Source: a virus. Taken from it: a DNA stretch of 64,000 bases. This document shows, one piece after another, positions 3,084-63,086 of the stretch (position 1 is its first letter; the number at the start of each line of letters is the position of its first letter). The position numbers and the translations under genes are program-made. Location of the stretch: positions 1 through 64,000 of IMG/VR virus record IMGVR_UViG_645058793_000001. One strand, 5' to 3'. The notes under the pieces were generated by a model. That model worked only from the letters and a program-made list of their open reading frames with translations. It ran no database searches and was not told the DNA's origin.

Positions 3084-3421
3084 TAACTCATACTCCTAAT
3101 AATTGAATATATTGGATTTAATGCGTCCATAATATTGAATGATGATATAATTATTGTCACAACTGCTACTAGCAGTAACCCCATTGCCACCACATAATGT
3201 GCCTCACCATCGGCATAACTTTCATCACTATCTATTGCCACGCCTCTTTTATATAATGTGTGAGCTACTGAAATTAAGATAACAGTAATTACAGCATAGA
3301 TAATTGCTCCAACATAATGTGCAACTACGTATTGATGCACCATTGTATCAACCATACTTGGCATGTTTTGTGCGCCGCTGTTTATGGTGTCGATTAACTT
3401 AGCGATTGCTTTATCTGTCAT
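3083..3421 (-). CDS. hypothetical membrane protein (112 aa)
   Basis: Three hydrophobic helices. Confidence 0.4.
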   Translation of the reverse strand: MTDKAIAKLIDTINSGAQNMPSMVDTMVHQYVVAHYVGAIIYAVITVILISVAHTLYKRGVAIDSDESYADGEAHYVVAMGLLLVAVVTIIISSFNIMDALNPIYSIIRSMS

Positions 3422-4358
3422 TGATCACACCTCTAATCACTGTGGAAATCTGCTTGTTTAATTCCTTGTTTACTACTGGCTCAACTAATTCTTGTGATAC
3501 ACCTTCATCACGAACATATTCTTTAATAATGTCAGCCTTTACAGCTTTGCTTAATTCACCAAAGTTTTTAAAGTCCAACTCAATACCATGTGATGATACA
3601 TTCATGACACGATTATCAGTTACATAGCGCTCAACATCGATTGCCAACGCTGATAATTCATGAGGTTGACTATGTTTCTTAGGTACGTGTCGCACTTCAA
3701 GATATTTATCAGTCTTGTGTTTAACTACTCGGTAGTGTTCCAGTTCATTGCTATCGTACAGACTAGCTTTAAATGGTTTATATACTAACCCCTCGCTGAT
3801 ACCGCCGTATAATGATTTTTCGCTAGGTGTTTGTTTTAATAACTCTCCCAATGGTTGTGGTTCACTAACCGTTTCAACCATGAAATCATTAACTATTGCT
3901 TGTAAGTCATAAAGGTCAGGTTGCAAAAATTTATCTTCAACAATCAGAATCGCATCATATAACACAACTGCTTTACCTTTTACGTCATAATTTGATCGTT
4001 GAATTTTATCTCCGTATAACTCCCCATAGATATGTGCTTCAACAATCTTACTATCATAGATAAAATCAATTGCTTCACGCATGGTATCAACATCTTCATG
4101 ACTGATTAAATCAGGTAACACATTGAAAGGTTTTTCGTCTGGATCTTTAATAAATCCTGACCGCTTACCAAACTTATACTCACCAGTTGCCATATCGATT
4201 GTGATAGAAACGTTTGATCCGTCTACTTTTTCAGTAGCATACATCAGTTCATTCAATTCAAAATTACGTTCGTCAACTTTATAGTGATTAGTTAATGATG
4301 GATATTTTAGAAATTTCATTACGATTCCTTTCGCCATACGCTGTGACCAGTGAACCAT
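3411..4358 (-). CDS. ATP-dependent RNA/DNA ligase-like nucleotidyltransferase
   Basis: Motif I KVDGSN (KxDG); motif IV-like EGLVYK; motif V-like KHKTDK; 315 aa is in the range of Rnl2-type RNA ligases. Confidence 0.5.
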   Translation of the reverse strand: MVHWSQRMAKGIVMKFLKYPSLTNHYKVDERNFELNELMYATEKVDGSNVSITIDMATGEYKFGKRSGFIKDPDEKPFNVLPDLISHEDVDTMREAIDFIYDSKIVEAHIYGELYGDKIQRSNYDVKGKAVVLYDAILIVEDKFLQPDLYDLQAIVNDFMVETVSEPQPLGELLKQTPSEKSLYGGISEGLVYKPFKASLYDSNELEHYRVVKHKTDKYLEVRHVPKKHSQPHELSALAIDVERYVTDNRVMNVSSHGIELDFKNFGELSKAVKADIIKEYVRDEGVSQELVEPVVNKELNKQISTVIRGVINDR

Positions 4359-5034: not shown

Positions 5035-5285
5035 TAATTGTTCTCCTCATCTAATTCTTGTGCGACATTTAAAAACTTGCGAAATTTATTACCGACTTCT
5101 AACACTTTATCTTCATCAGTGAATTCCTCCATAGCCATGTGGAAACGCTCGACAATAACGTCTTTATCTAAGTCTGCAACTTCCAATGCCCATGCAGTTT
5201 GGTAATACAAAAGGTCTTTATAGGTTAGTTTCATAATAATGTCTCCTACATACTGGTACGTAATCGTCGTCACCGCCAATAACAA
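5034..5285 (-). CDS. hypothetical protein (83 aa)
   Basis: ORF. Confidence 0.35.
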   Translation of the reverse strand: MLLAVTTITYQYVGDIIMKLTYKDLLYYQTAWALEVADLDKDVIVERFHMAMEEFTDEDKVLEVGNKFRKFLNVAQELDEENN

Positions 5286-5763
5286 TCTGTTCTGTACTAT
5301 CTGACAATCGCTTATTCATAGTTGCCTTGTGTCCACAATAGTTACAAATTGTTTTCATCTCTGAAATCTTATCGGCAAATACTAGCAACGCTTCCGAACC
5401 TTCGAACAAACAATTATCGAAATCATTCTTTAACCCGAAACACATCACTGGTATATCATTTGTATCCACAATTTTTGCCAGTGCAACCACCTGCTTACGT
5501 GTCAAAAATTGTGCCTCATCAATTAAGATTGCTGCATAGCCGTCAGTATTTAGCTGGGATAAATCTTCGTCCATGCCAATTGCATAAGCATCGCTTTCCA
5601 TACCGATACGTGACGTGATTTTCCCTATTCCATAACGTGTATCAACGCTACTGGTTGCTAGTAGCACACGTCGATTTTGTTGCTGGTAATTATGTGCAAC
5701 CTTTAATATCTCAATGCTTTTACCGCTCGCCATTGTGCCGTATTTATAAAATAACTGAGCCAT
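5218..5763 (-). CDS. tdk: thymidine kinase
   Basis: P-loop YGTMASGKS and a C-terminal zinc ribbon CNYCG...PVCRRH typical of type II thymidine kinases. Confidence 0.85.
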   Translation of the reverse strand: MAQLFYKYGTMASGKSIEILKVAHNYQQQNRRVLLATSSVDTRYGIGKITSRIGMESDAYAIGMDEDLSQLNTDGYAAILIDEAQFLTRKQVVALAKIVDTNDIPVMCFGLKNDFDNCLFEGSEALLVFADKISEMKTICNYCGHKATMNKRLSDSTEQIVIGGDDDYVPVCRRHYYETNL

Positions 5764-6382: not shown

Positions 6383-6406
6383 TAACGTATACGTTAACGT
6401 TAACCT
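6383..6406. repeat. ACGTWW hexamer palindromic array, copy A (TTAACGTATACGTTAACGTTAACC)
   Basis: Seen directly; the same motif family recurs at 18973, 21404, 25048 and 27835. Confidence 0.6.
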
Positions 6407-10784: not shown

Positions 10785-10990
10785 TTTTTTATTTTCCTTC
10801 TATATAAGAACGCTCTGGCTGCCCAGAAAATTGATAGGACAATACTAATGAGTGAAAGGATAATGACGAATACGTTTCCTGTAAACAGTAATACTAGGTT
10901 GATAATCGACAAAACCAGTACATGAACTGAAAGCATATTGCTTAGATAGTTCATGTGATTATTTATTTTTAATCTATCCATGTGCTTCAC
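10769..10990 (-). CDS. small membrane protein (73 aa)
   Basis: Two TM helices. Confidence 0.35.
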   Translation of the reverse strand: MKHMDRLKINNHMNYLSNMLSVHVLVLSIINLVLLFTGNVFVIILSLISIVLSIFWAARAFLYRRKIKKWFNY

Positions 10991-11975
10991 CAGTTAGTTG
11001 TTCGATCGAAACGTCTAGGGCATCTGATAGTTTGAAAATAGTTTCTAATCTAGGAGTTGTACGTCCGTTTTCGTAATTAAAAATATTATTTACATACAGC
11101 CCTGAACGTCTTGCTAATTCATTCATTGAATACCCACGTTCTAAACGATATTTATTAACATTATTTCCAATCGCAACTGCTGGACTAACATATTCAGATT
11201 TCAATTTCTTGGCAAAGTAATTATGACCTTTAGGAGTAATCATAGTTGTACGGCTTACCTTGTTATTGCTAACTATTTGGTAAGTATAAAGTGTCTCTTT
11301 AACTTCCATATATCCAAAATCAAGTGATTTAGATGTAGGTAAGTTATAATTATCACCACGTTTTGTTGTGCATACCCAACCGTTATCACGGAACCATTGG
11401 TATAACTTTTTCTCACCAATCTTAATTCCGTATTCCTTATTCAACACTTTCGCAAATGCTGACACGCCCATGCTTTCCTTGCTGCCTTCCATGATTAAGG
11501 CAACCTTTGCGTCTTCCTGTAACTTCGCAGTCAATGCACGTTCGTTCTTTAAGTCGGTTGCCACACGAATTAATGTTTCAGGACTTAGCAACACTTCCTC
11601 AGTCATGTAAGCACCATGCTTACGAATGTCGGGTAAGACTTCGGTCGTTAGCCAGCGCTTAAATTTCTTGGCTTGCTCTTTCATTTGTGGGTTACGTGAT
11701 TGCTTTGATGCGTCCCAAATCATTGAGTAGATACCTGACTCGTTGATGAAGATTGGATATTGCTCACGGCCAAGGCTGTCTGTTATCGATGGGGCTCCAA
11801 CTTGGGGTCCCATCTTTCTATCTTCATTATCAACATGCTTTACAACAGCATCTTTTGCTTTCGCATATCCCAATACCTCAGCCACATCTTTACCAACGAA
11901 CCATGGTTCATCATCAATCATTACCTGGCGGACGTCTTTACCTTCAAAACCTAGAACTTGTAACTCATTGTTCAT
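10974..11975 (-). CDS. Bro-N family antirepressor-like protein with C-terminal XRE HTH
   Basis: N-terminal Bro-N-like segment (QVLGFEG...DEPWFVGKDVAEVLGY); C-terminal HTH (YSMNELARRSGLYVNNIFNYENG). Confidence 0.6.
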   Translation of the reverse strand: MNNELQVLGFEGKDVRQVMIDDEPWFVGKDVAEVLGYAKAKDAVVKHVDNEDRKMGPQVGAPSITDSLGREQYPIFINESGIYSMIWDASKQSRNPQMKEQAKKFKRWLTTEVLPDIRKHGAYMTEEVLLSPETLIRVATDLKNERALTAKLQEDAKVALIMEGSKESMGVSAFAKVLNKEYGIKIGEKKLYQWFRDNGWVCTTKRGDNYNLPTSKSLDFGYMEVKETLYTYQIVSNNKVSRTTMITPKGHNYFAKKLKSEYVSPAVAIGNNVNKYRLERGYSMNELARRSGLYVNNIFNYENGRTTPRLETIFKLSDALDVSIEQLTGEAHG

Positions 11976-12404: not shown

Positions 12405-12734
12405 ATGTCTTTATACGAACGTGTAGTTGATTTATCTAATAAAAGAAATTTTAAAAGTGTGCGTGATTTATCTATCGCTGCTGGCATGTCTCAGAATGCT
12501 TTATATAGTTGGAAAACGCAGAGTCCTTCTGCCGACAATCTGAATGCTGTGGCAAAAATACTTGGTGTGTCAGCAGATTATCTATTAGGCAATACAGATG
12601 ATATGTATTCAAATCAAAACGATAATCAATTGGACATTAAGAACGCCCCTATACTTGCATACGACGGCAAACCAGTATCAGATGAAACTCGCGACATATT
12701 AGAAAGAATTTTAGAGATGGAAACACATAAATGA
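12405..12734 (+). CDS. XRE-family transcriptional repressor (ImmR/CI-like, no peptidase domain)
   Basis: HTH_XRE signature (SVRDLSIAAGMSQNALYSWKTQ); first gene of the rightward operon at the switch. Confidence 0.7.
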   Translation: MSLYERVVDLSNKRNFKSVRDLSIAAGMSQNALYSWKTQSPSADNLNAVAKILGVSADYLLGNTDDMYSNQNDNQLDIKNAPILAYDGKPVSDETRDILERILEMETHK

Positions 12735-13138
12735 AAAATGTAATGACCTACTTACAATATCTAGCTGACGTGAACGGTATCACTATTATTGTTACTGACC
12801 AGCTAGACGAATATGAAAGCGACAAATGTATTCCAGCAATTAATACAATTATTATTAACGAGAATTATGCTACAAAAGTTGATGTGGCTTTTAGACTTGC
12901 GCATGAGTTATCTCATTTAATATTTGGATCACGTTTTTCAGATGCAATCTATTCATTTTCAATTGGAAGCAATCGTGACGCAGAACGTGAAGCCAATATC
13001 AATGCATTAAAGATGTTGTGCAAGTATCTATACACTGATACACCTTTAGAATATCGTAACTACATTAATTTTATGAATGAATTCGGTTTACCAGCTAGTA
13101 TGGAAAACATGGTGAAGGACGCTATATTAGCTGTTTAA
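12731..13138 (+). CDS. ImmA/IrrE-family zinc metallopeptidase (anti-repressor protease)
   Basis: HEXXH motif (AHELSHLIFG); translationally coupled to the XRE repressor, a classic ImmR/ImmA pair. Confidence 0.7.
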   Translation: MKNVMTYLQYLADVNGITIIVTDQLDEYESDKCIPAINTIIINENYATKVDVAFRLAHELSHLIFGSRFSDAIYSFSIGSNRDAEREANINALKMLCKYLYTDTPLEYRNYINFMNEFGLPASMENMVKDAILAV

Positions 13139-14311: not shown

Positions 14312-15016
14312 TTATTTTGCATTTTTTCGTGACCAGATAGAGTAAAACTTTCCATACAATGCAGTCACTAAGTAGAATAACATCGTTAGTAACATAGGCA
14401 AGCTAGATGCTGAGTAACCGATAAACAATGCTGATACCCACAGAGCAATATTAACAAAGTCAGACATTAACCACAATGAGTAGCTGTCACCATAACCCTT
14501 GAACACGTACCATGAAGCCATTGCTCCAATAATCAATACGATTGAATCCCATAGTGGGTTTGTATCACCTAACGCTGTGTACGCCATCAGTACTGGGTAC
14601 CATAGTGCTAGAATTAATACGATAGTAAAAATCCAGCCTTTAATAGATAGGAATTTTACACCGTCTTTTACACGGTTGCCCCACTTTTTCCATGTGATGA
14701 TTAATGGCACATCAATCAAGGCAACGAATACCAGTTGATCTAATACACTAGCGAAATGTCCAGCAGACCAGTTAATGTAAATATACCCTAACGCACTGAT
14801 TAATCCAAGCAGCCCATTAATAGGTTTACCAATCATCATGTACACGGTACATGCCGAACCAATAATTGTTGCGAATAATGTAATTGTGGATAGCACTGTA
14901 ATCGGCGCTGTTAGATAAAACGCTAACTGTACCCCCACAATAAACGCTAGCATAATTGCGCCAGCTGCATTCAGAGATTTAATCTCATCTAGTAACCATT
15001 TCCCATAACCTGTCAT
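14312..15016 (-). CDS. pnuC: nicotinamide riboside/NMN transporter PnuC-like
   Basis: 234 aa, about 7 TM helices, W-rich helices typical of the PnuC family. Confidence 0.6.
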   Translation of the reverse strand: MTGYGKWLLDEIKSLNAAGAIMLAFIVGVQLAFYLTAPITVLSTITLFATIIGSACTVYMMIGKPINGLLGLISALGYIYINWSAGHFASVLDQLVFVALIDVPLIITWKKWGNRVKDGVKFLSIKGWIFTIVLILALWYPVLMAYTALGDTNPLWDSIVLIIGAMASWYVFKGYGDSYSLWLMSDFVNIALWVSALFIGYSASSLPMLLTMLFYLVTALYGKFYSIWSRKNAK

Positions 15017-16272: not shown

Positions 16273-16654
16273 ACACCTTTTCTCTTTCTAAATTAGAATC
16301 TAATACACGCTGGTAAATATCTACTCGTTTAAATCGTTTCAATAAACGGTCTAGGTTGTTCAATCCAAACTCATAAGCACTGCGTTTTGATTCTGATAAC
16401 CATAACGAATAGGTGTCATCACCAATCACTTCCCACACGCTGATAGGATTAGGATCTTGTTCAACTGAGATACTACCTGCGGAAAATAAATCTAATCGGC
16501 TTAACGTTTCAGCTAACTCATCAGCCTTCGTTCGACTAAATAATTTAGCTCCATCAGCCGAATATACCCACTCTAAATTCACTGGGTTCTCACTAGCAAA
16601 ATATGCTTTCATACCAGCTAGTTCGTACACCACAACGTATTTATACATTGGCAA
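16259..16654 (-). CDS. hypothetical protein (131 aa)
   Basis: ORF. Confidence 0.35.
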   Translation of the reverse strand: MPMYKYVVVYELAGMKAYFASENPVNLEWVYSADGAKLFSRTKADELAETLSRLDLFSAGSISVEQDPNPISVWEVIGDDTYSLWLSESKRSAYEFGLNNLDRLLKRFKRVDIYQRVLDSNLEREKVYEFI

Positions 16655-17270
16655 TTTTCCTATCGATAATATCCAATACTCTCAGTGCATCTTCTGGATT
16701 AGATAAATCATTGTGCTCCAAATCAATTCGAATCTTTGGAGATATATCATAATCATCAAACCACTCACGATAACGATTCCACATACGATGATAATATTCT
16801 TCAAGGCTTGGGTCATTTTCAATTTGTTCATAATCACGACCACGTTTCTTAATACGATTTAGAATGGTATCAAAATCTGCATCGATAAATACCAGTAAAT
16901 CTGGACGTTCCTTAGCCGTCGCATTAATTTCGCCCATCATATTATCAAGTAGGTCTAAGTAGATGTTATATTCAACATCGGTGATATTACCTGATTTATG
17001 ATTTTCTGCGGTGAACAAAGCGTCCTCATAAATCGAACGGTCTAAGATATTGTTATCGTCTGCTAGCGCTTGCTTAATCATCGCGAACCGCTTGTTTAAA
17101 AAGTAAATCTGCAACGAGAATGCAAACCGTTCCGGATTCTTATAATAATCAGGTAGCACGGGGTTACCTTCAACTGGTTCGTAGAATGGTCGTGTACCTA
17201 AATGTTCTGCTAATAGTGTGGTCAGTGTTGTTTTCCCTACACCAATCATGCCTGCTGTAATAATCACCAT
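16641..17270 (-). CDS. deoxynucleoside kinase (dAK/dCK/dGK family)
   Basis: P-loop GMIGVGKTT; DRS motif (LDRSIYED); arginine-rich lid (KKRGRDYE). Confidence 0.8.
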   Translation of the reverse strand: MVIITAGMIGVGKTTLTTLLAEHLGTRPFYEPVEGNPVLPDYYKNPERFAFSLQIYFLNKRFAMIKQALADDNNILDRSIYEDALFTAENHKSGNITDVEYNIYLDLLDNMMGEINATAKERPDLLVFIDADFDTILNRIKKRGRDYEQIENDPSLEEYYHRMWNRYREWFDDYDISPKIRIDLEHNDLSNPEDALRVLDIIDRKIANV

Positions 17271-18972: not shown

Positions 18973-19000
18973 TTTACGTTAACGTTAACGTATACGTTAA
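18973..19000. repeat. ACGTWW hexamer array, copy B (TTTACGTTAACGTTAACGTATACGTTAA); extra partial unit 19015-19028 inside the primase 3' end
   Basis: Seen directly. Confidence 0.6.
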
Positions 19001-21403: not shown

Positions 21404-21436
21404 ATTAACGTATACGTATACGTTAACGTTAACTTT
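21404..21436. repeat. ACGTWW hexamer array, copy C (AATTAACGTATACGTATACGTTAACGTTAACTTT)
   Basis: Seen directly. Confidence 0.6.
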
Positions 21437-25013: not shown

Positions 25014-25047
25014 TTGTCACTCCTTGTGTTATAATTTATTAAGTTAT

Positions 25048-25078
25048 CGTAAACGTATACGTGAACGTTAACGTCAAC
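25048..25078. repeat. ACGTWW hexamer array, copy D (CGTAAACGTATACGTGAACGTTAACGTCAAC) in the divergent promoter region
   Basis: Seen directly. Confidence 0.6.
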
Positions 25079-25172
25079 TTACAAGTAATAATATAAATCC
25101 AAACAGGTCAGGGAACTATCAAATATAAAGAATGCCAATAAAACAATTAATTTTATAAGAAAGGTCAATATT

Positions 25173-25517
25173 ATGAACTCGGTAAAAGACTTCGACTTAA
25201 AAGAACGAATAAAAATTTTAGCTGAGCAGCAAGGAAAATCATTAGCGGACATCACAAAAGAATCTGGATATACGTCTGGACGTATTGGTAATTGGTCACA
25301 ATTTTTTCCTGGCATGGCTCAGGTTGAACACATCGCAAGTTTGCTGGACGTATCGATATTAGATTTGTTGCCATACACGGCAGAAGATTTAGGAATTGAT
25401 ACAATACCAGAAACAACACCAAAAGGCGTGTTAATGACGACAGTAAACAAATCAAACTTAACGGACAGCCAGTACATCATATTAGTCGATTTAATTAAAT
25501 CAATGGAGGAAGGTTAA
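25173..25517 (+). CDS. XRE-family HTH regulator (114 aa)
   Basis: HTH (SLADITKESGYTSGRIGNWSQ); first gene of the par operon. Confidence 0.55.
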   Translation: MNSVKDFDLKERIKILAEQQGKSLADITKESGYTSGRIGNWSQFFPGMAQVEHIASLLDVSILDLLPYTAEDLGIDTIPETTPKGVLMTTVNKSNLTDSQYIILVDLIKSMEEG

Positions 25518-26272
25518 TGTCAGCAACCATAACAGCGTTTTATAACAACAAGGGTGGGGTAGCTAAGACGACATCAACAATTAATATTGCTGGGGAATTG
25601 TCTAAGCAACAAAAAAAGACCCTGATAATCGACGCGGATCCACAGGGGCATTCAACATTAAGTTTTGGATATGATGCAGACTCAATTGATGTTGAACTAG
25701 GTACAATGTTGTACAACAAGTTAGAAGGTTCACAAGCAAAAGAATACTTTATTCACATAAACGACTATCTCGATGTTGTACCAGCAAATCAAACGTTAGC
25801 CGATTTCATCGCCTCAAACCCAGAAGGGAACAATTACCTTAATGACTTCCTAAAAGGGCTGAGAGACGAATATGATTACATATTTATCGATATGGCACCG
25901 GCAGTCGACGTTATCCTAGCCAATGTGTTGAATGTAGTTGACGACTTAGTGGTATTATCTAGTCCACAACCATACGCAGTTCGTAATACCGAACGTACTT
26001 TAAACACAACTGACAGCTACAATGTACCAATTCGACGGATAGTTGCAACCATGGTGGATAAGCGTGTCAATACAGATAAAGAATTTCTAGAGCAGTTAAA
26101 GGAAATTGCAACAGAACATAACGTAAAGTTAGCTGATACGTATATTCCAATGCGTGCTGCATTCCGCGACAGTATGGGTAGGTATCAAATGCCGTTATCG
26201 CTAGTTGATGAACCTAGCTATAAAGAGGCACAACAGTATTATCATAAATTAACGAAAGAGTTGGGATATTAA
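25517..26272 (+). CDS. parA: ParA/Soj-family partition ATPase
   Basis: Deviant Walker A NNKGGVAKTT; ParA-like length and motifs (IIDADPQG). Confidence 0.8.
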   Translation: MSATITAFYNNKGGVAKTTSTINIAGELSKQQKKTLIIDADPQGHSTLSFGYDADSIDVELGTMLYNKLEGSQAKEYFIHINDYLDVVPANQTLADFIASNPEGNNYLNDFLKGLRDEYDYIFIDMAPAVDVILANVLNVVDDLVVLSSPQPYAVRNTERTLNTTDSYNVPIRRIVATMVDKRVNTDKEFLEQLKEIATEHNVKLADTYIPMRAAFRDSMGRYQMPLSLVDEPSYKEAQQYYHKLTKELGY

Positions 26273-26273
26273 T

Positions 26274-26522
26274 ATGGCTAAACCACAATTTCTAAGGAGA
26301 CCAACAAACGTATTAAAGCAGGATCCACAACCTGAAAAAGAAGTGGATCTAAGAACTAAAAGCAGTGAGGAAACAGCAACCGAATTATTAGCTGTTAGAG
26401 CAACACCAACAGTTAAGAAATTATTAGATGATTTAGGTAGTGAACTTGGTGTTAGGCAGGGTGGTAGAAGAAAAATTATCGAAGACGCCTTGTTTGATTA
26501 CTATGAAAAACAAAAAGATTAA
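26274..26522 (+). CDS. ParG/ParB-like small centromere-binding protein (putative RHH fold)
   Basis: 82 aa, basic N-terminal tail, C-terminal RHH-like (RRKIIEDALFDYYE); translationally coupled to parA. Confidence 0.45.
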   Translation: MAKPQFLRRPTNVLKQDPQPEKEVDLRTKSSEETATELLAVRATPTVKKLLDDLGSELGVRQGGRRKIIEDALFDYYEKQKD

Positions 26523-26529
26523 GTTTAAC

Positions 26530-26568
26530 GACTGGCTATCGCGTATGTGCAACTGCTAGTCGTTTTTT
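26530..26568 (+). terminator. rho-independent terminator of the par operon
   Basis: ACGACTGG...CTAGTCGT hairpin followed by TTTTTT. Confidence 0.5.
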
Positions 26569-26569
26569 A

Positions 26570-27456
26570 ACGCTATCCAAAACGCTCGCTGTACAAGTGA
26601 ACTTAATGTACGACTAAATTATATCCAGAACCGATTGTTAGTATCCTGCAGTCACTTAGTAGCCTCAAGCCGGCAGGCATTTATCACTTACGTTCTTTTA
26701 AAAATCTTCTAAAACCTTTGACAAGTAACCAAGATTAACGCTTTGAGCGCTAGGAGTGAGTTGAAGATACAGTTCACCCATAAGTCGTAGTATGAACCGT
26801 AACTGAATTGATTAACGCTTCTCGCGAAGTCGGTCGTCTCATCACATCTATCGCTCACTCATAACATTACTTTACCATGTGTCGGATTCCGTATACCTGC
26901 ATGTTTTGATTTCTCAATTTGTAACGTCCATTCGTTTGTCTTACCAAACGAGGAATCGTAGATCAACCTAGTTACCGTTCATAGCGTATAACCACGTCAA
27001 TGTTTTGCCACCCACAAGCCCAGTTAATCATGCGTTAATATTAATATTTAACGTTTAGAAATTTTCCCATTACTGAGTTGGAAGCCAGAGGCAGTGTCCT
27101 TAGATGCGCTCCCCACACCCCGATACACCTGATAGAAAGTAGCATATCGGGAAGCCCTTTGAATAACCGCGGTAACCTCTCCGCGCCACAATGTGGATAA
27201 CCAATGACGAAGGTTTCTCACGCAAAAAAAGAGACTCCAGTTACAATCCATCTGTTGTAATCGAAGTCTCTACTTGCTTGAAATTCTATCTGAAATAGGT
27301 TATAATTATCCTATTAAATAAAGATAGTAATTCTTTGTGAGTCGTTATCAAGGTCTGCCAACCAAGATAACATTTCGATACTCGCAACGTGTGAATGAGA
27401 TTGCTAATATCTGGAACACTTCAAAGCCTGCCAGCTGAGAAGTGTTCTTTTTTTGT
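26570..27456 (+). ncRNA. candidate large structured ncRNA (ORF-free, terminator-bounded)
   Basis: About 900 nt without a credible ORF, GC content visibly above the flanking genes, many local hairpins (e.g. CCGATA...TATCGG, CGCGG...CCGCG), ends at a strong plus-strand terminator at 27414-27456. Confidence 0.25.
27414..27456 (+). terminator. rho-independent terminator
   Basis: GAACACTTC ... GAAGTGTTC 9-bp stem followed by TTTTTTTG. Confidence 0.55.
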
Positions 27457-27559
27457 ATTAAGTTATTTGATGTCTCAATCATAACCTATCGGTGGGCTAG
27501 AAGTCAACAACCAAATTGTAAGAATTGCTAAAGACGTATTAAAGTTTACATAATCTATA

Positions 27560-27754
27560 TTATCGTAAGTTGTTTTTCTTTTCTAATTCCGCTAATTTTT
27601 GACGCAACAACTCGTTTTCAAGCCGTGCGTTCTGCTCGTTAATCTTATTCATTTTATATTGCTGACCTTGATTAGATCCCTCTATAAACGAATTAAATAT
27701 ATACCCGATTGAACCAATAACAAACAATACTAATGCTAATACAAATGGCCACAT
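27560..27754 (-). CDS. small membrane/coiled-coil protein (64 aa), possible lysis accessory
   Basis: N-terminal TM helix then coiled coil. Confidence 0.4.
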   Translation of the reverse strand: MWPFVLALVLFVIGSIGYIFNSFIEGSNQGQQYKMNKINEQNARLENELLRQKLAELEKKNNLR

Positions 27755-27789
27755 AACAATTACCCTCCGTTTTAAATATATTTATTATA

Positions 27790-27832
27790 CACAAAAAGCC
27801 CCACCAGTACCATCAGATACCAGTGGGGCAAT
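27790..27832 (-). terminator. rho-independent terminator (minus strand)
   Basis: GCCCCACCAGTA...TACCAGTGGGGC hairpin followed by T-run on the minus strand. Confidence 0.5.
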
Positions 27833-27834
27833 GG

Positions 27835-27870
27835 GTTAACGTAAATGTATACGTTAACGTTAACGTTATT
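27835..27870. repeat. ACGTWW hexamer array, copy E (GTTAACGTAAATGTATACGTTAACGTTAACGTTATT)
   Basis: Seen directly; lies between the endolysin stop and its terminator. Confidence 0.6.
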
Positions 27871-28796
27871 TATTTAACTTCGGTAAGACTAGCAGCATTC
27901 ACCCATACGTTGCCATATCGGGTACTGAATGCAATACCATTAGAGGCTTCATCAACATCTTCCACACGAATGCGGTCAGAGTGTAGACGGAAATAGTCGC
28001 CAACCTTAAGCGTTTGGTTAGCAGTCTTATTTCCTTTGCTATCAACCTTATCGACTGATTCAACACCTAATCCATTAAGTGTCCAATTGATTGGTTTACC
28101 GCCAGCAAAAGCATAGTTGACAACTTGCCAGATGCCATTAACTTGCTTTAGTTCGTCCACACGATATGCAGGTTTAGCTTTGAAATACTCGCCAACGTTT
28201 AATACTTGGTCGACTTTTGCAGTTGACTTAGCAGAAGTGGCGGGAGTGGTGACTGCACCACCGACACCGTATTTAATATCATGCTTTAGCTTATCGTATG
28301 ATACACCCCACTTTTGTAGAAATGGTAGTGGGTCGACATGGTCAGAACCATGACCAGTACGTGAAGCATAGTTGTGAGTTTTAACTCCAACAGTACCCGG
28401 TGTGTCTAACGTGAAATCAGTAATGCCAGCTTCCTTTGCTAGTTGCCGTGCAAGTTCAATATAAATTTTATAGTCACGATTGAACTCAGCTTGGTTAGCT
28501 ACATGTTCATTGAACTCGATTGCTGCATATCCTTCCCAGTTCCAATCTCCGCCAACATCATACGCACCACCATTAGTAGCAGCTACTTGAATAGCTTGTC
28601 CTTCACCAACGATGTGTGTGTAATAGGCGTTACCATACGAACGTGATAGGTATGAAATTGAGTTAGCATTAGTTGCATTAGGATTACCAGTTGAGTGCAA
28701 ATGAACTTGTCGGAAAGGCGCACGCGCCAATCCAGCTGCAACTGCAGGCTTACCTGGAACCACAATATTTTTAATTACGTTAACCATTATTACCAC
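27870..28796 (-). CDS. endolysin: N-acetylmuramoyl-L-alanine amidase-type catalytic domain with two C-terminal SH3b-like repeats
   Basis: N-terminal amidase-like motifs (VHLHSTGNP, GYAAIEFN, HGSDHVDP); two repeated C-terminal VG(E/D)YF...V modules. Confidence 0.7.
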   Translation of the reverse strand: MVIMVNVIKNIVVPGKPAVAAGLARAPFRQVHLHSTGNPNATNANSISYLSRSYGNAYYTHIVGEGQAIQVAATNGGAYDVGGDWNWEGYAAIEFNEHVANQAEFNRDYKIYIELARQLAKEAGITDFTLDTPGTVGVKTHNYASRTGHGSDHVDPLPFLQKWGVSYDKLKHDIKYGVGGAVTTPATSAKSTAKVDQVLNVGEYFKAKPAYRVDELKQVNGIWQVVNYAFAGGKPINWTLNGLGVESVDKVDSKGNKTANQTLKVGDYFRLHSDRIRVEDVDEASNGIAFSTRYGNVWVNAASLTEVK

Positions 28797-59939: not shown

Positions 59940-60470
59940 TTATACAATCTTCCCCTTGTAATCACGAGTTTCAATGCTGCGGAAATCAAATGTTTGTAAT
60001 TCGTCCAGCGAATTGACATAACTATCTGGTCCAATAGCCGTCATTAAGTTGATTGGATTAGCATTCCAGTCACCAACATAGTACGTTACCGTAGGTTTAC
60101 CAGTAGCTTTTGCATATCCTAATTCGTATGCAGTTCCGCTATCCTCATTGCCTGCTTCGAGTACACCTAGTGTGAAGTCTGAGTTTCGGATAGCGGTTTC
60201 GTCTGCGTTATACGTATTCACACCCCACTTGAAGTCAGGGTTGAAGTCGCCGTTCTCATCGTACACATTACCTTCCGACTGATTCAAAAGTGGCAAATGT
60301 ACGTATGCAACTGTTGGATTATTTAATAATGCTCGATACCCAGTGACTAACGTTTTAATCTGCACATCTGAAAACCAACCGGCCCCAAAATATCCGGTCT
60401 TTGCACCCGGTAACTTGTCATTTGGTGCTTGCGATTGAATCTCTAGTAATTGTTTAATTAGTTCGTCCAT
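59940..60470 (-). CDS. nucleoside 2-deoxyribosyltransferase (NDT family)
   Basis: YFGAGWFSD and SGTAYELGYA motifs characteristic of Lactobacillus NDT. Confidence 0.75.
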   Translation of the reverse strand: MDELIKQLLEIQSQAPNDKLPGAKTGYFGAGWFSDVQIKTLVTGYRALLNNPTVAYVHLPLLNQSEGNVYDENGDFNPDFKWGVNTYNADETAIRNSDFTLGVLEAGNEDSGTAYELGYAKATGKPTVTYYVGDWNANPINLMTAIGPDSYVNSLDELQTFDFRSIETRDYKGKIV

Positions 60471-61938: not shown

Positions 61939-62785
61939 TCCTCCTACTAAAAAGGAACGCCTTTAAACGTTCCCTAATTATATGTATTGCACGACTACTA
62001 GCTAGTACCGCTGTTCCTCACCGTATCTTCGTGGCGAAACAACGCTAGTCGTACAAGTACACTGCAACTTTATCTAGAATGGGTGTTGCGAACCCACAGT
62101 TCATCTGTTCATCGTGTCTATTGTAAAGACGTAAGTAACTCAACCCTTCCGACCAGTTACCATTGGTTTTGTGCGTGTCACACAGGATATTATATGTATG
62201 CCGGCTTGAGAATATAGCCACAGCTCGAACGCCTTTAATTGCATTATGATTTCGCAACGTTTCCACGCTATCCCTAACGTATCGTTCATGTTCATATTAT
62301 TACTTCATAAGTATCTCGGCACGTTTCACTTAGGTAAGATGCAGCTAACATCTAACTTGCGCTACTAGTTACTGAACCGTTTCGTCTTGCGAACAGCCAC
62401 GGCACTCACTTCGTTATTGTAACGGTGAGTATTAGAACACATCACTCATGAAGGCAAAGCACTTTTGCTTGTAAGTATAATGTTTAATAGATTGTATTAT
62501 TTACCGGTCAATTCAACGATGTGGCCTTGCAGGAGTTCCGTTACCTTTTGAGTAACAGAATGCTCCACACCGCCTATTGTGTTTTGTTTGTAGGACGCAA
62601 CACTTGAAGTAGTGATCACTGGTTGTCAGTCAGCAATATAATTCATTCGTATCGCATGCGATTTACGGTCGCATACTGTTTAGTAGTCCTTTGGAATGAC
62701 CGTTGACATGGTGTCTCATCATTTGACATCAACCAAGCGTTCCTTAGGACTACATTACGTGCATAGATTGACCATTACTGGCACG

Positions 62786-63013: not shown

Positions 63014-63086
63014 CGAGAACTACTGGATTCGAACCAGTGACATCATGATTAACGATCATACGCTCTACCAACTGAGCTAAGTTCCC
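63014..63086 (-). tRNA. tRNA, Asn-like (anticodon GTT)
   Basis: Hand-folded canonical cloverleaf: acceptor GGGAACT/AGTTCTC, D-stem GCTC/GAGC, anticodon stem TATGA/TCATG with loop TCGTTAA, variable loop ATGTC, T-arm ACTGG-TTCGAAT-CCAGT; position 33 is C rather than U. Confidence 0.65.

Follow-up and report, generated by a model that had tools for sequence, protein, structure and literature searches.

What occupies the kilobase behind a phage partition operon when no gene does? The question is raised by a 64,000-nucleotide (nt) stretch of viral DNA (IMG/VR record IMGVR_UViG_645058793_000001, positions 1 to 64,000; hereafter the window), in which a gap at 26523-27559 lies between the stop codon at 26522 that closes a parA/parG operon and an open reading frame (ORF) at 27560-27754. 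An earlier note on this DNA had proposed a large structured non-coding RNA read from the plus strand and had offered a plasmid-type origin or parS region as an alternative. The comparisons described below point to an origin, and the gap probably holds the plasmid-type replication region of a Weissella phage-plasmid, which is about 1 kb long, non-coding and without an initiator (Rep) gene.

A non-coding element carried by Weissella plasmids and phages

The longest ORF in the gap encodes 67 amino acids (aa) on the minus strand, and neither this nor a 49-aa minus-strand ORF matched a Pfam or PHROG family, in keeping with the earlier statement that 26523-27559 has no credible ORF. The lack of genes extends beyond the window, as gene callers found nothing in the gap of any of 18 related metagenome loci (18/18) nor in that of L019, a more distant phage. 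The 18 loci were found by exact-protein look-up and were 94-100% identical to the window across the region. Among these close relatives 26523-27250 was as invariant as the ParA coding sequence and 27251-27560 varied several-fold more. In L019 synteny was kept, with ParA 70% identical and coding DNA 66-72% identical, and the gap was 1.7 kb, gene-free and marked by collinear islands of similarity to the window.

Homologues on plasmids were identified by blastn (distant mode) against the 72,556 plasmids of PLSDB. The window gap matched Weissella plasmids only, always in unannotated stretches, and a plasmid copy used as the query returned 24 records (23 Weissella and one Leuconostoc). All of these homologues were gene-free gaps of at least 1 kb in Weissella or Leuconostoc plasmids and in two circular Weissella phage-plasmids. 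Class I comprised those with a body homologous to window 26720-27215 and included Weissella MOBQ and conjugative plasmids (pWcMBF8-1, pNH9449-1, pCBA3612-02 and pCBA3636-02), a W. hellenica plasmid (unnamed2) and the phage-plasmids W. cibaria M2 unnamed1 and W. confusa N17 p1. The last two are circular molecules of 31 kb with phage structural (capsid, tail) and lysin genes, and the element adjoins the lysin gene in both, the same place as in the window; two circular phage-plasmids with the element therefore indicate that such phages live as plasmids. Class II members shared only the first ~190 nt, termed module A, with the window and had a body of their own of ~600 nt that was 85-95% conserved within the class. 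These included pKLCB (3.35 kb), N17 p3 (3.7 kb), pWconfE392-2 (4.6 kb), pNH9449-5 (5.6 kb) and several larger plasmids. An order of module A, spacer, body, minus-strand terminator, plus-strand promoter and plus-strand terminator recurs in lineages that are otherwise unalignable, and the family seems to have no description in Rfam or the searchable literature.

Rep and relaxase genes were both absent from the small class II plasmids, and MOB-suite assigned them no replicon type. Their cargo differed, and the common part that was found was a conserved non-coding stretch of 0.9-1.1 kb. An ORF listing of pKLCB gave two credible ORFs only, cadD and a GNAT gene, with no Rep ORF, and seven further carriers whose records were read throughout also had no annotated Rep (pWcMBF8-1, the M2 phage-plasmid, pCBA3612-02, W. 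hellenica unnamed2, N17 p3, pWconfE392-2 and pNH9449-5). No paper on a Rep-less Weissella replicon was found in the literature searched. Beside the class II element of four small Weissella plasmids (L090, L091, L093 and L095) is a gene for a 157-160-aa protein with a weak N-terminal helix-turn-helix (HTH) signal, which is missing from pKLCB and could be a copy-control or accessory replication protein.

Searches of phage and metagenome collections were less productive. No match among 50,697 phage records was obtained by blastn with the region, 20 kb around it or the L019 gap as the query, IMG/VR queried by ParA and by three DNA patterns returned nothing, and a pattern scan of Joint Genome Institute (JGI) metagenomes gave 45 matches, all due to chance. 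The first of two genome-collection scans was empty and the second contained a single real match among 16, W. confusa FS54. The window phage has no close relative among deposited phages or in IMG/VR.

Decay of a protein-coding gene, for example a lost rep or integrase, would also leave a long gap of this kind. Stop-free runs of 95-138 codons do occur in some plasmid homologues, and a minus-frame translation of the M2 phage-plasmid aligns with that of the window at 47% identity over 81 aa. However, none of these open runs has a start codon; they are found on either strand of one and the same DNA and are frame-shifted or interrupted between members, and amino-acid identity falls below nucleotide identity (77% vs 83%). 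Insertions and deletions are not multiples of three, helices covary as described below, no Pfam or PHROG family was matched, and there was no similarity to the RepA_N initiators that follow a related par operon in Ligilactobacillus plasmids. The decayed gene was rejected on the frame, start-codon and identity evidence and is scarcely credible; the homologues showed no degenerated coding sequence of the sort that the earlier note had said would overturn its proposal.

Parts of the element and the strand of its structure

Module A (26530-26720, minus strand) is a conserved non-coding block of ~190 nt found in all members of both classes. It was detected with nhmmer and blastn in 19 of the 19 collected gaps, four of which had it in partial form, and its motifs read TGGCTATCGC, AACGCTATCC and CGCTGTACA in plus-strand letters and GGATAGCGTT in minus-strand letters. 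The primary sequence is conserved and the consensus fold is weak, which ruled out a single conserved hairpin; module A is a candidate origin or single-strand initiation site. The hairpin and T-run at 26530-26568 (plus strand), described earlier as the terminator of the par operon, is real and ends the HTH-parA-parG operon, but it overlaps the first module A motif, TGGCTATCGC, which is conserved in plasmids where the par genes are elsewhere or in the other orientation. An AT-rich spacer of variable length, seen in the alignment at 26690-26718 with no strand assigned, lies between module A and the body and is possibly an unwinding element. The L019 spacer is much longer and has a T-rich TTTGTT repeat.

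The body (26720-27222, minus strand) is a non-coding stretch of ~500 nt with more C than G on its plus strand, in which conserved blocks and hairpins are split by lineage-specific stretches. The minus strand was the G-rich one in 19 of 19 bodies from both classes. The gap as a whole had been called clearly less AT-rich than its flanking genes. A slight rise in guanine-plus-cytosine (GC) content was real (0.40-0.43, compared with 0.38-0.40 in the par genes), but it was marginal, with the lysin and many other phage genes equal or higher (0.42-0.45), and the negative GC skew of the gap, with C exceeding G on the plus strand, was the more striking feature.

Two sets of hairpins in the body were conserved. 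The first is a hairpin at 26769-26800 (minus strand; ACAGTTCA...TGAACCGT in plus-strand letters) that forms U·G pairs on the minus strand when folded there with RNAalifold, and the second is a cluster of four covarying hairpins at 27080-27196 (minus strand; 27080-27113, 27118-27152, 27168-27185 and 27186-27196) with minus-strand G-runs (GGGGUGUGGGG). The inverted repeats CCGATA/TATCGG (27118-27152) and CGCGG/CCGCG (27168-27185) that had been picked out from the window sequence belong to this cluster, and both are real and covary across relatives. At the end of the cluster is a DnaA-box-like 9-mer, TGTGGATAA (27192-27200, plus strand; the complement of TTATCCACA), which matches exactly in the window and also in the W. 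hellenica plasmid and has one mismatch in six more class I members, its position and orientation being constant.

RNAalifold on nine class I sequences (window 26984-27292) predicted the same hairpins on both strands, at -38.8 kcal/mol for the minus strand vs -19.1 kcal/mol for the plus strand. Covariation was evaluated for 34 pairs in five helices of the 26984-27292 block, one helix lying left of 27080. Paired cells made up 91.8%, compared with 74.0% in shuffles and 42-48% when the partners were slid, and 22 pairs had changed on both sides vs 11.8 ± 2.0 in shuffles; none of 500 shuffles equalled the observed values for pairing or compensation. The hairpin at 26769-26800 behaved like the five covarying helices, and the mid-body was too divergent for alignment. 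The alignment of relatives that the earlier note had recommended as a check thus placed five body helices above shuffles, and its reading of the region as non-coding and structured was borne out, the region being conserved and its secondary structure truly covarying. G·U cells in the 34 pairs numbered 45 on the minus strand and five on the plus strand. Because the fold came from the minus strand, the percentage paired is biased; the wobble asymmetry is not, since Watson-Crick cells are identical on both strands.

A covariance model built from three of the hairpins (R1) recovered all class I members together with L031 and L103 (W. confusa FS54), neither of which had been used in building it. 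L031 is a conjugative-plasmid contig whose match falls in the gap that precedes the gene for a ParA 48% identical to that of the window. The same model gave no match in class II bodies, so the two classes share module A and the layout and not the hairpin cluster.

To the right of the body a predicted intrinsic terminator on the minus strand (27271-27223) has a 17-bp stem followed by U7, and terminators with unrelated stem sequences occupy the same place in L019, the MOBQ plasmids, the M2 phage-plasmid and class II. A strong predicted sigma-70-type promoter (27278-27306, plus strand; TTGAAA, 17 nt, TATAAT, 11/12) comes next, with counterparts at the equivalent place in pNH9449-1 (11/12), L019 (10/12) and the class II plasmid M2 unnamed2 (11/12). 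The promoter and a downstream terminator predict a small RNA of ~150 nt (27313-27462, plus strand; ~90-150 nt across members) that folds at -37 kcal/mol with stem-loops. That terminator, a hairpin at 27414-27456 followed by T7, was already recognized in the earlier note and is present and folds as predicted. It does not close one plus-strand unit spanning the gap, as had been proposed, since it ends a short RNA with its own promoter and the minus-strand terminator intervenes. Small changes among close relatives fit the strand assigned to each terminator: an A-T pair of the minus-strand terminator is replaced in compensatory fashion by G-C, with an intermediate that pairs as G·U on the minus strand, and an A in the stem of the plus-strand terminator is replaced by G, leaving U·G on the plus strand.

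A second predicted promoter faces the first (27507-27478, minus strand; TTGACT, 18 nt, TATGAT, 10/12), and its transcript would start ~10 nt past the small-RNA 3' end and would be antisense to the whole of the small RNA. Facing minus-strand promoters were also predicted in the W. hellenica plasmid (11/12), the M2 phage-plasmid (10/12) and L019 (10/12), with an extended -10 in pNH9449-1, and none was found by the scan in the class II plasmid M2 unnamed2. The run of minus-strand terminator, plus-strand promoter and plus-strand terminator recurs in L019, pNH9449-1 and M2 unnamed2 with different stems and spacers. The small-RNA part was more variable than the body among close relatives, and the small RNA is a candidate countertranscript. 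Further right is a 36-nt block (27537-27572, no strand assigned) that blastn found to be 89% identical to L019 10529-10564 amid unalignable flanks. An imperfect palindrome (TTACATAAT..ATTATCGTAA) lies within the block, which is possibly an operator at the right edge of the module.

A large structured RNA that acts in trans, whether as a GOLLD/ROOL-like particle, a regulator or an anti-defence RNA, and that is unlinked to replication and merely carried beside par, would agree with several of these results. The covarying hairpins extend over at least 120 nt and are joined by further conserved helices, the G·U bias indicates a single-stranded functional molecule, the family is restricted to mobile elements, and the window phage already has a giant RNA. 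That RNA, GOLLD (RF02032), was located by a whole-window Rfam scan at 62203-62575 on the minus strand (173 bits, gathering score 150, E 5e-47), 35 kb from the gap and beside a tRNA at 63014-63086 (minus strand). The same scan at gathering thresholds placed no family within the gap, and cmscan of 26300-27800 at E<=10 returned three chance matches only (bglG-cis-reg, mir-7927 and GIR1), far under their gathering scores, so that the Rfam check suggested earlier gave no GOLLD, ROOL, HEARO, OLE or raiA match in the region. Plasmid countertranscript RNA (ctRNA), RNAI and CopA models matched neither the window region nor the homologous cassettes of L085 and L095, in which Rfam matches were sub-threshold and terminator-driven. 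The ~900-nt plus-strand RNA of GOLLD/ROOL type was therefore mistaken in strand, extent and family, given the G·U pairs on the minus strand and the want of a genuine Rfam match at E<=10. A trans-acting RNA would still have a body for which no promoter was found and which a terminator separates from the only upstream promoter, and its mid-body is poorly conserved. It would also leave the small Rep-less plasmids without any replicon, and convergent small-RNA cassettes of this kind typify replication control. We regard an RNA acting in trans as distinctly unlikely.

The structured strand could instead work as single-stranded DNA (ssDNA), that is, as a lagging-strand or single-strand origin (sso), a single-strand initiation site (ssi) or an origin of transfer (oriT) used after conjugation, rolling-circle replication or phage DNA entry. 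Strand-specific non-coding structure common to unrelated plasmids is a hallmark of an sso, several hosts are MOBQ/MOBV mobilizable or conjugative, and DNA hairpins also tolerate G·T wobble. In addition, minus-strand module A includes TAGCGT, within GGATAGCGTT; this hexamer matches the CS-6 motif of ssoA, a type of origin in rolling-circle plasmids that also has an RSB site. However, all of the small carriers are without a rolling-circle Rep or relaxase, known sso measure 150-300 nt vs ~700 nt plus a promoter/terminator cassette here, and module A has a weak consensus fold. The element lies downstream of mobQ in MOBQ plasmids, although an oriT is usually upstream. The plasmids would still need a replicon even if module A worked in this way, so an ssDNA function, which we consider rather unlikely as the full explanation, is partly compatible with a replication region.

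Probable replication without an initiator gene

A replicon without a plasmid-encoded initiator is the most likely function of the element because its distribution, its position beside par, the absence of an initiator gene and the convergent small-RNA cassette agree. Read along the minus strand, the parts would be the promoter at 27507-27478, a leader of ~200 nt overlapped by the plus-strand small RNA, the terminator at 27271-27223, the G-rich body, the AT-rich spacer and module A (26720-26530). A transcript passing the terminator would fold and then serve the origin in cis, by opening it or, like ColE1 RNA II, as a pre-primer or R-loop. Copy number and incompatibility would be regulated by the plus-strand small RNA, an antisense RNA in the role of ColE1 RNA I, and module A would provide the start or single-strand initiation site. 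The remaining work may be done by host proteins (RNA polymerase, DnaA, and Pol I/RNase H or the PriA primosome), and the adjacent parA/parG would partition the prophage as a plasmid. That the structured strand works as an RNA and not as DNA is our inference, as are the roles of the small RNA and module A. A more specific proposal is that these elements form an RNA-driven, initiator-protein-free family of Gram-positive replicons, in which a G-rich minus-strand RNA of ~0.5-0.7 kb itself sets up replication by ColE1-like R-loop priming and is checked by the antisense small RNA, the module being exchanged between Weissella plasmids and tailed phages to make plasmid prophages. This proposal is tentative and falls well short of being probable.

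Several observations weigh against a replication region of this kind. A replication function is deduced from comparison and distribution only, and the window phage also has a full phage replication module. Three larger plasmids with module A encode a RepB initiator, so the element need not be the sole replicon of its carriers; the absence of Rep from the larger plasmids is not airtight, since PLSDB gene tables omit pseudogenes, and Rep could come in trans in strains with multiple plasmids. The DnaA-box-like 9-mer is not significant alone, being expected by chance about once per 1.3 kb. The minus-strand terminator formed in every predicted fold of the window leader, with the antisense region masked or not, and a preemptor-like duplex exceeded shuffles in L019 and M2 unnamed2 (z about 3.6-3.9) but did not do so in the window and pNH9449-1. 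Between the minus-strand terminator and the body no promoter was found. The proposed scheme thus does not account for transcription reaching the body, as the terminator always forms and preemptor pairing is present in two of four members. The body may accordingly differ in its mode of action from that outlined above and may function as a read-through RNA, as displaced ssDNA (sso/ssi-like) or partly as binding sites in double-stranded DNA. An attenuator model was considered and set aside when leader folds and the preemptor search (2/4 members) gave no consistent support.

The element is best classed within a known kind, the initiator-gene-less theta replicon, as a variant. ColE1-type replicons need no Rep, as stated in PMC9743546. 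The likeness to ColE1 (class B theta) consists of the lack of an initiator gene, a size of ~0.6-1 kb, a long structured transcript, here proposed, directed toward the origin, G-runs in the long RNA and a DnaA box, here a DnaA-box-like site, near the origin. It also includes a convergent antisense RNA of ~100-150 nt, here predicted, that starts within the 5' part of the long RNA and ends beside its start. The convergent promoter pair and small-RNA terminator are present in the window and several members, the plus-strand cassette is present in class II as well, and a terminator follows the overlap. Unlike ColE1, the element has no sequence or Rfam similarity to RNAI families, belongs to Gram-positive Lactobacillaceae hosts and has an intrinsic terminator that separates the body from the antisense target.

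The predicted arrangement also recalls pT181 and pIP501/pAMbeta1, in which a leader covered by a countertranscript runs directly into an intrinsic terminator, both lying upstream of the replication function. Downstream of these parts, Inc18 plasmids have the origin together with a primosome site, and replication is primed by the transcript. In pT181 and pIP501 the terminators control a rep gene, whereas the downstream payload here is non-coding; there is also no Rfam ctRNA match, and anti-terminator pairing is supported in two of four members. The phage-plasmid P1 resembles the arrangement proposed here in having a dedicated plasmid replicon beside a ParA-type operon and apart from its lytic replication genes, but P1 uses a RepA initiator and iterons, while the element of the window has no initiator gene and is shared with plasmids of the host genus. 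The GOLLD and ROOL RNAs of Lactobacillales phages are similarly large, conserved, non-coding and structured; the element differs in having no covariance-model match, in lying on the strand opposite to that proposed, and in being a composite with internal promoters and terminators. The small Leuconostoc theta plasmid pTXL1 is said to replicate without a typical rep gene.

ORF-free theta minireplicons of 1.1-1.3 kb have been reported for pLS20 and pTE15, the former as cited in the latter account (PMC9743546). These replicons from Bacillus (pLS20, class E) and Limosilactobacillus (pTE15) resemble the element in being Rep-less, ~1.1-1.3 kb long, dyad-rich and located beside partition-type genes, and differ from it in that the element here sits in a phage. 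The iterons and multiple DnaA boxes of pTE15 were not seen here, and, in the text consulted, neither a countertranscript cassette nor covarying strand-specific helices were described for pLS20 or pTE15. No sequence homology to the pLS20 or pTE15 origins was apparent, as the blastn comparison with PLSDB gave Weissella and the one Leuconostoc record only.

The phage setting and what the element may mean

The par operon begins with a gene for an HTH regulator (25173-25517) upstream of parA (25517-26272), which matched PF13614 and phrog_164, and ends with a gene for an 82-aa protein (stop at 26522) that had no family match and was called ParG-like from its position and size alone. ParA homologues at 48-54% identity were encoded on ordinary plasmids, some with a RepA_N gene after par, and their gaps had no similarity to the window gap except for that of L031, recognized later by the covariance model. 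The nearest non-phage ParA proteins (52% identity) came from Ligilactobacillus salivarius plasmids (L023-L027) with the order resolvase-parA-parB-gap-repA (RepA_N), which indicates that the phage par genes are of plasmid type. The RepA_N gene of these plasmids had no counterpart in the window phage.

The region might instead be the centromere (parS/parC) of the ParA/ParG system, as it lies directly 3' of parG and type Ib centromeres adjoin the par operon. However, no direct repeats or repeat family occurred within 26570-27220, the element is also present in small plasmids without par genes, and arrays of ACGT are outside the region at 25043-25086, 27835-27866 and three other sites. A centromere is therefore very improbable, and of the alternative offered earlier the origin is favoured by the comparative evidence while the parS part has no support. 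The arrays consist of ACGT(A/T)(A/T) with a 6-bp period (25043-25086, 27835-27866, 21408-21429, 18976-18997 and 6385-6400), and ACGTWWACGT had 12 matches in the window vs 0.5 expected. At least four of the five sites are intergenic and two flank the par-plus-replicon module on either side. These arrays may serve ParG as a centromere or operator or may be sites for the HTH regulator, and L019 has analogous TATACA/TTTACG arrays at the par promoter and beside the lysin gene.

The opposite flank of the gap encodes a small membrane protein and an amidase endolysin, both on the minus strand. The 64-aa membrane/coiled-coil ORF at 27560-27754 (minus strand) was present in some close relatives and cleanly missing from others (indel 27581-27783), and is an accessory insertion at the right edge of the module; its similarity to an Rz-like spanin was weak only (E about 0.02). 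Contigs L012-L015 and L017 break in the 3' end of the endolysin gene (near window 27920-27935), just right of the array at 27835-27866, and lysis cassettes differ among relatives near this point, with lysins of 305, 338 and 298 aa. The contig breaks and differing cassettes suggest a recombination boundary between early/maintenance and late genes near 27920-27935.

Elsewhere in the window an HTH repressor with an ImmA/IrrE-like metalloprotease (12405-13138, plus strand) and an Ant-type antirepressor (10974-11975, minus strand) form a temperate-type switch, and no integrase was present among the window-phage ORFs scanned. A phage-plasmid lifestyle is suggested because ParA is accompanied by this repressor, ImmA-like protease and antirepressor, no integrase was seen among those ORFs, and two circular phage-plasmids carry the element. 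The phage has an unusually rich nucleotide-salvage set, comprising an RNA ligase (3411-4358), a thymidine kinase (5218-5763), a PnuC-like transporter (14312-15016), a deoxynucleoside kinase (16641-17270) and a nucleoside deoxyribosyltransferase (59940-60470).

If the element is a replicon, it would explain the replication of Weissella plasmids that have no recognisable Rep or replicon type and that escape Rep-based typing schemes. Vectors for the food and probiotic bacteria Weissella and Leuconostoc could then be built on an origin that is compact and free of protein genes. For genome scans, a long, ORF-free and hairpin-rich gap beside phage par genes would more likely be a plasmid origin than a trans-acting ornate RNA. 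The covarying strand-specific structure points to initiation or control at the level of RNA or ssDNA beyond the enterobacterial ColE1 family, where it is hardly documented. The phage would have gained its plasmid lifestyle when it took up, from plasmids of its host genus, a par operon along with a replicon that is non-coding, which would make it a concrete case of module exchange between phages and plasmids in the Lactobacillaceae.

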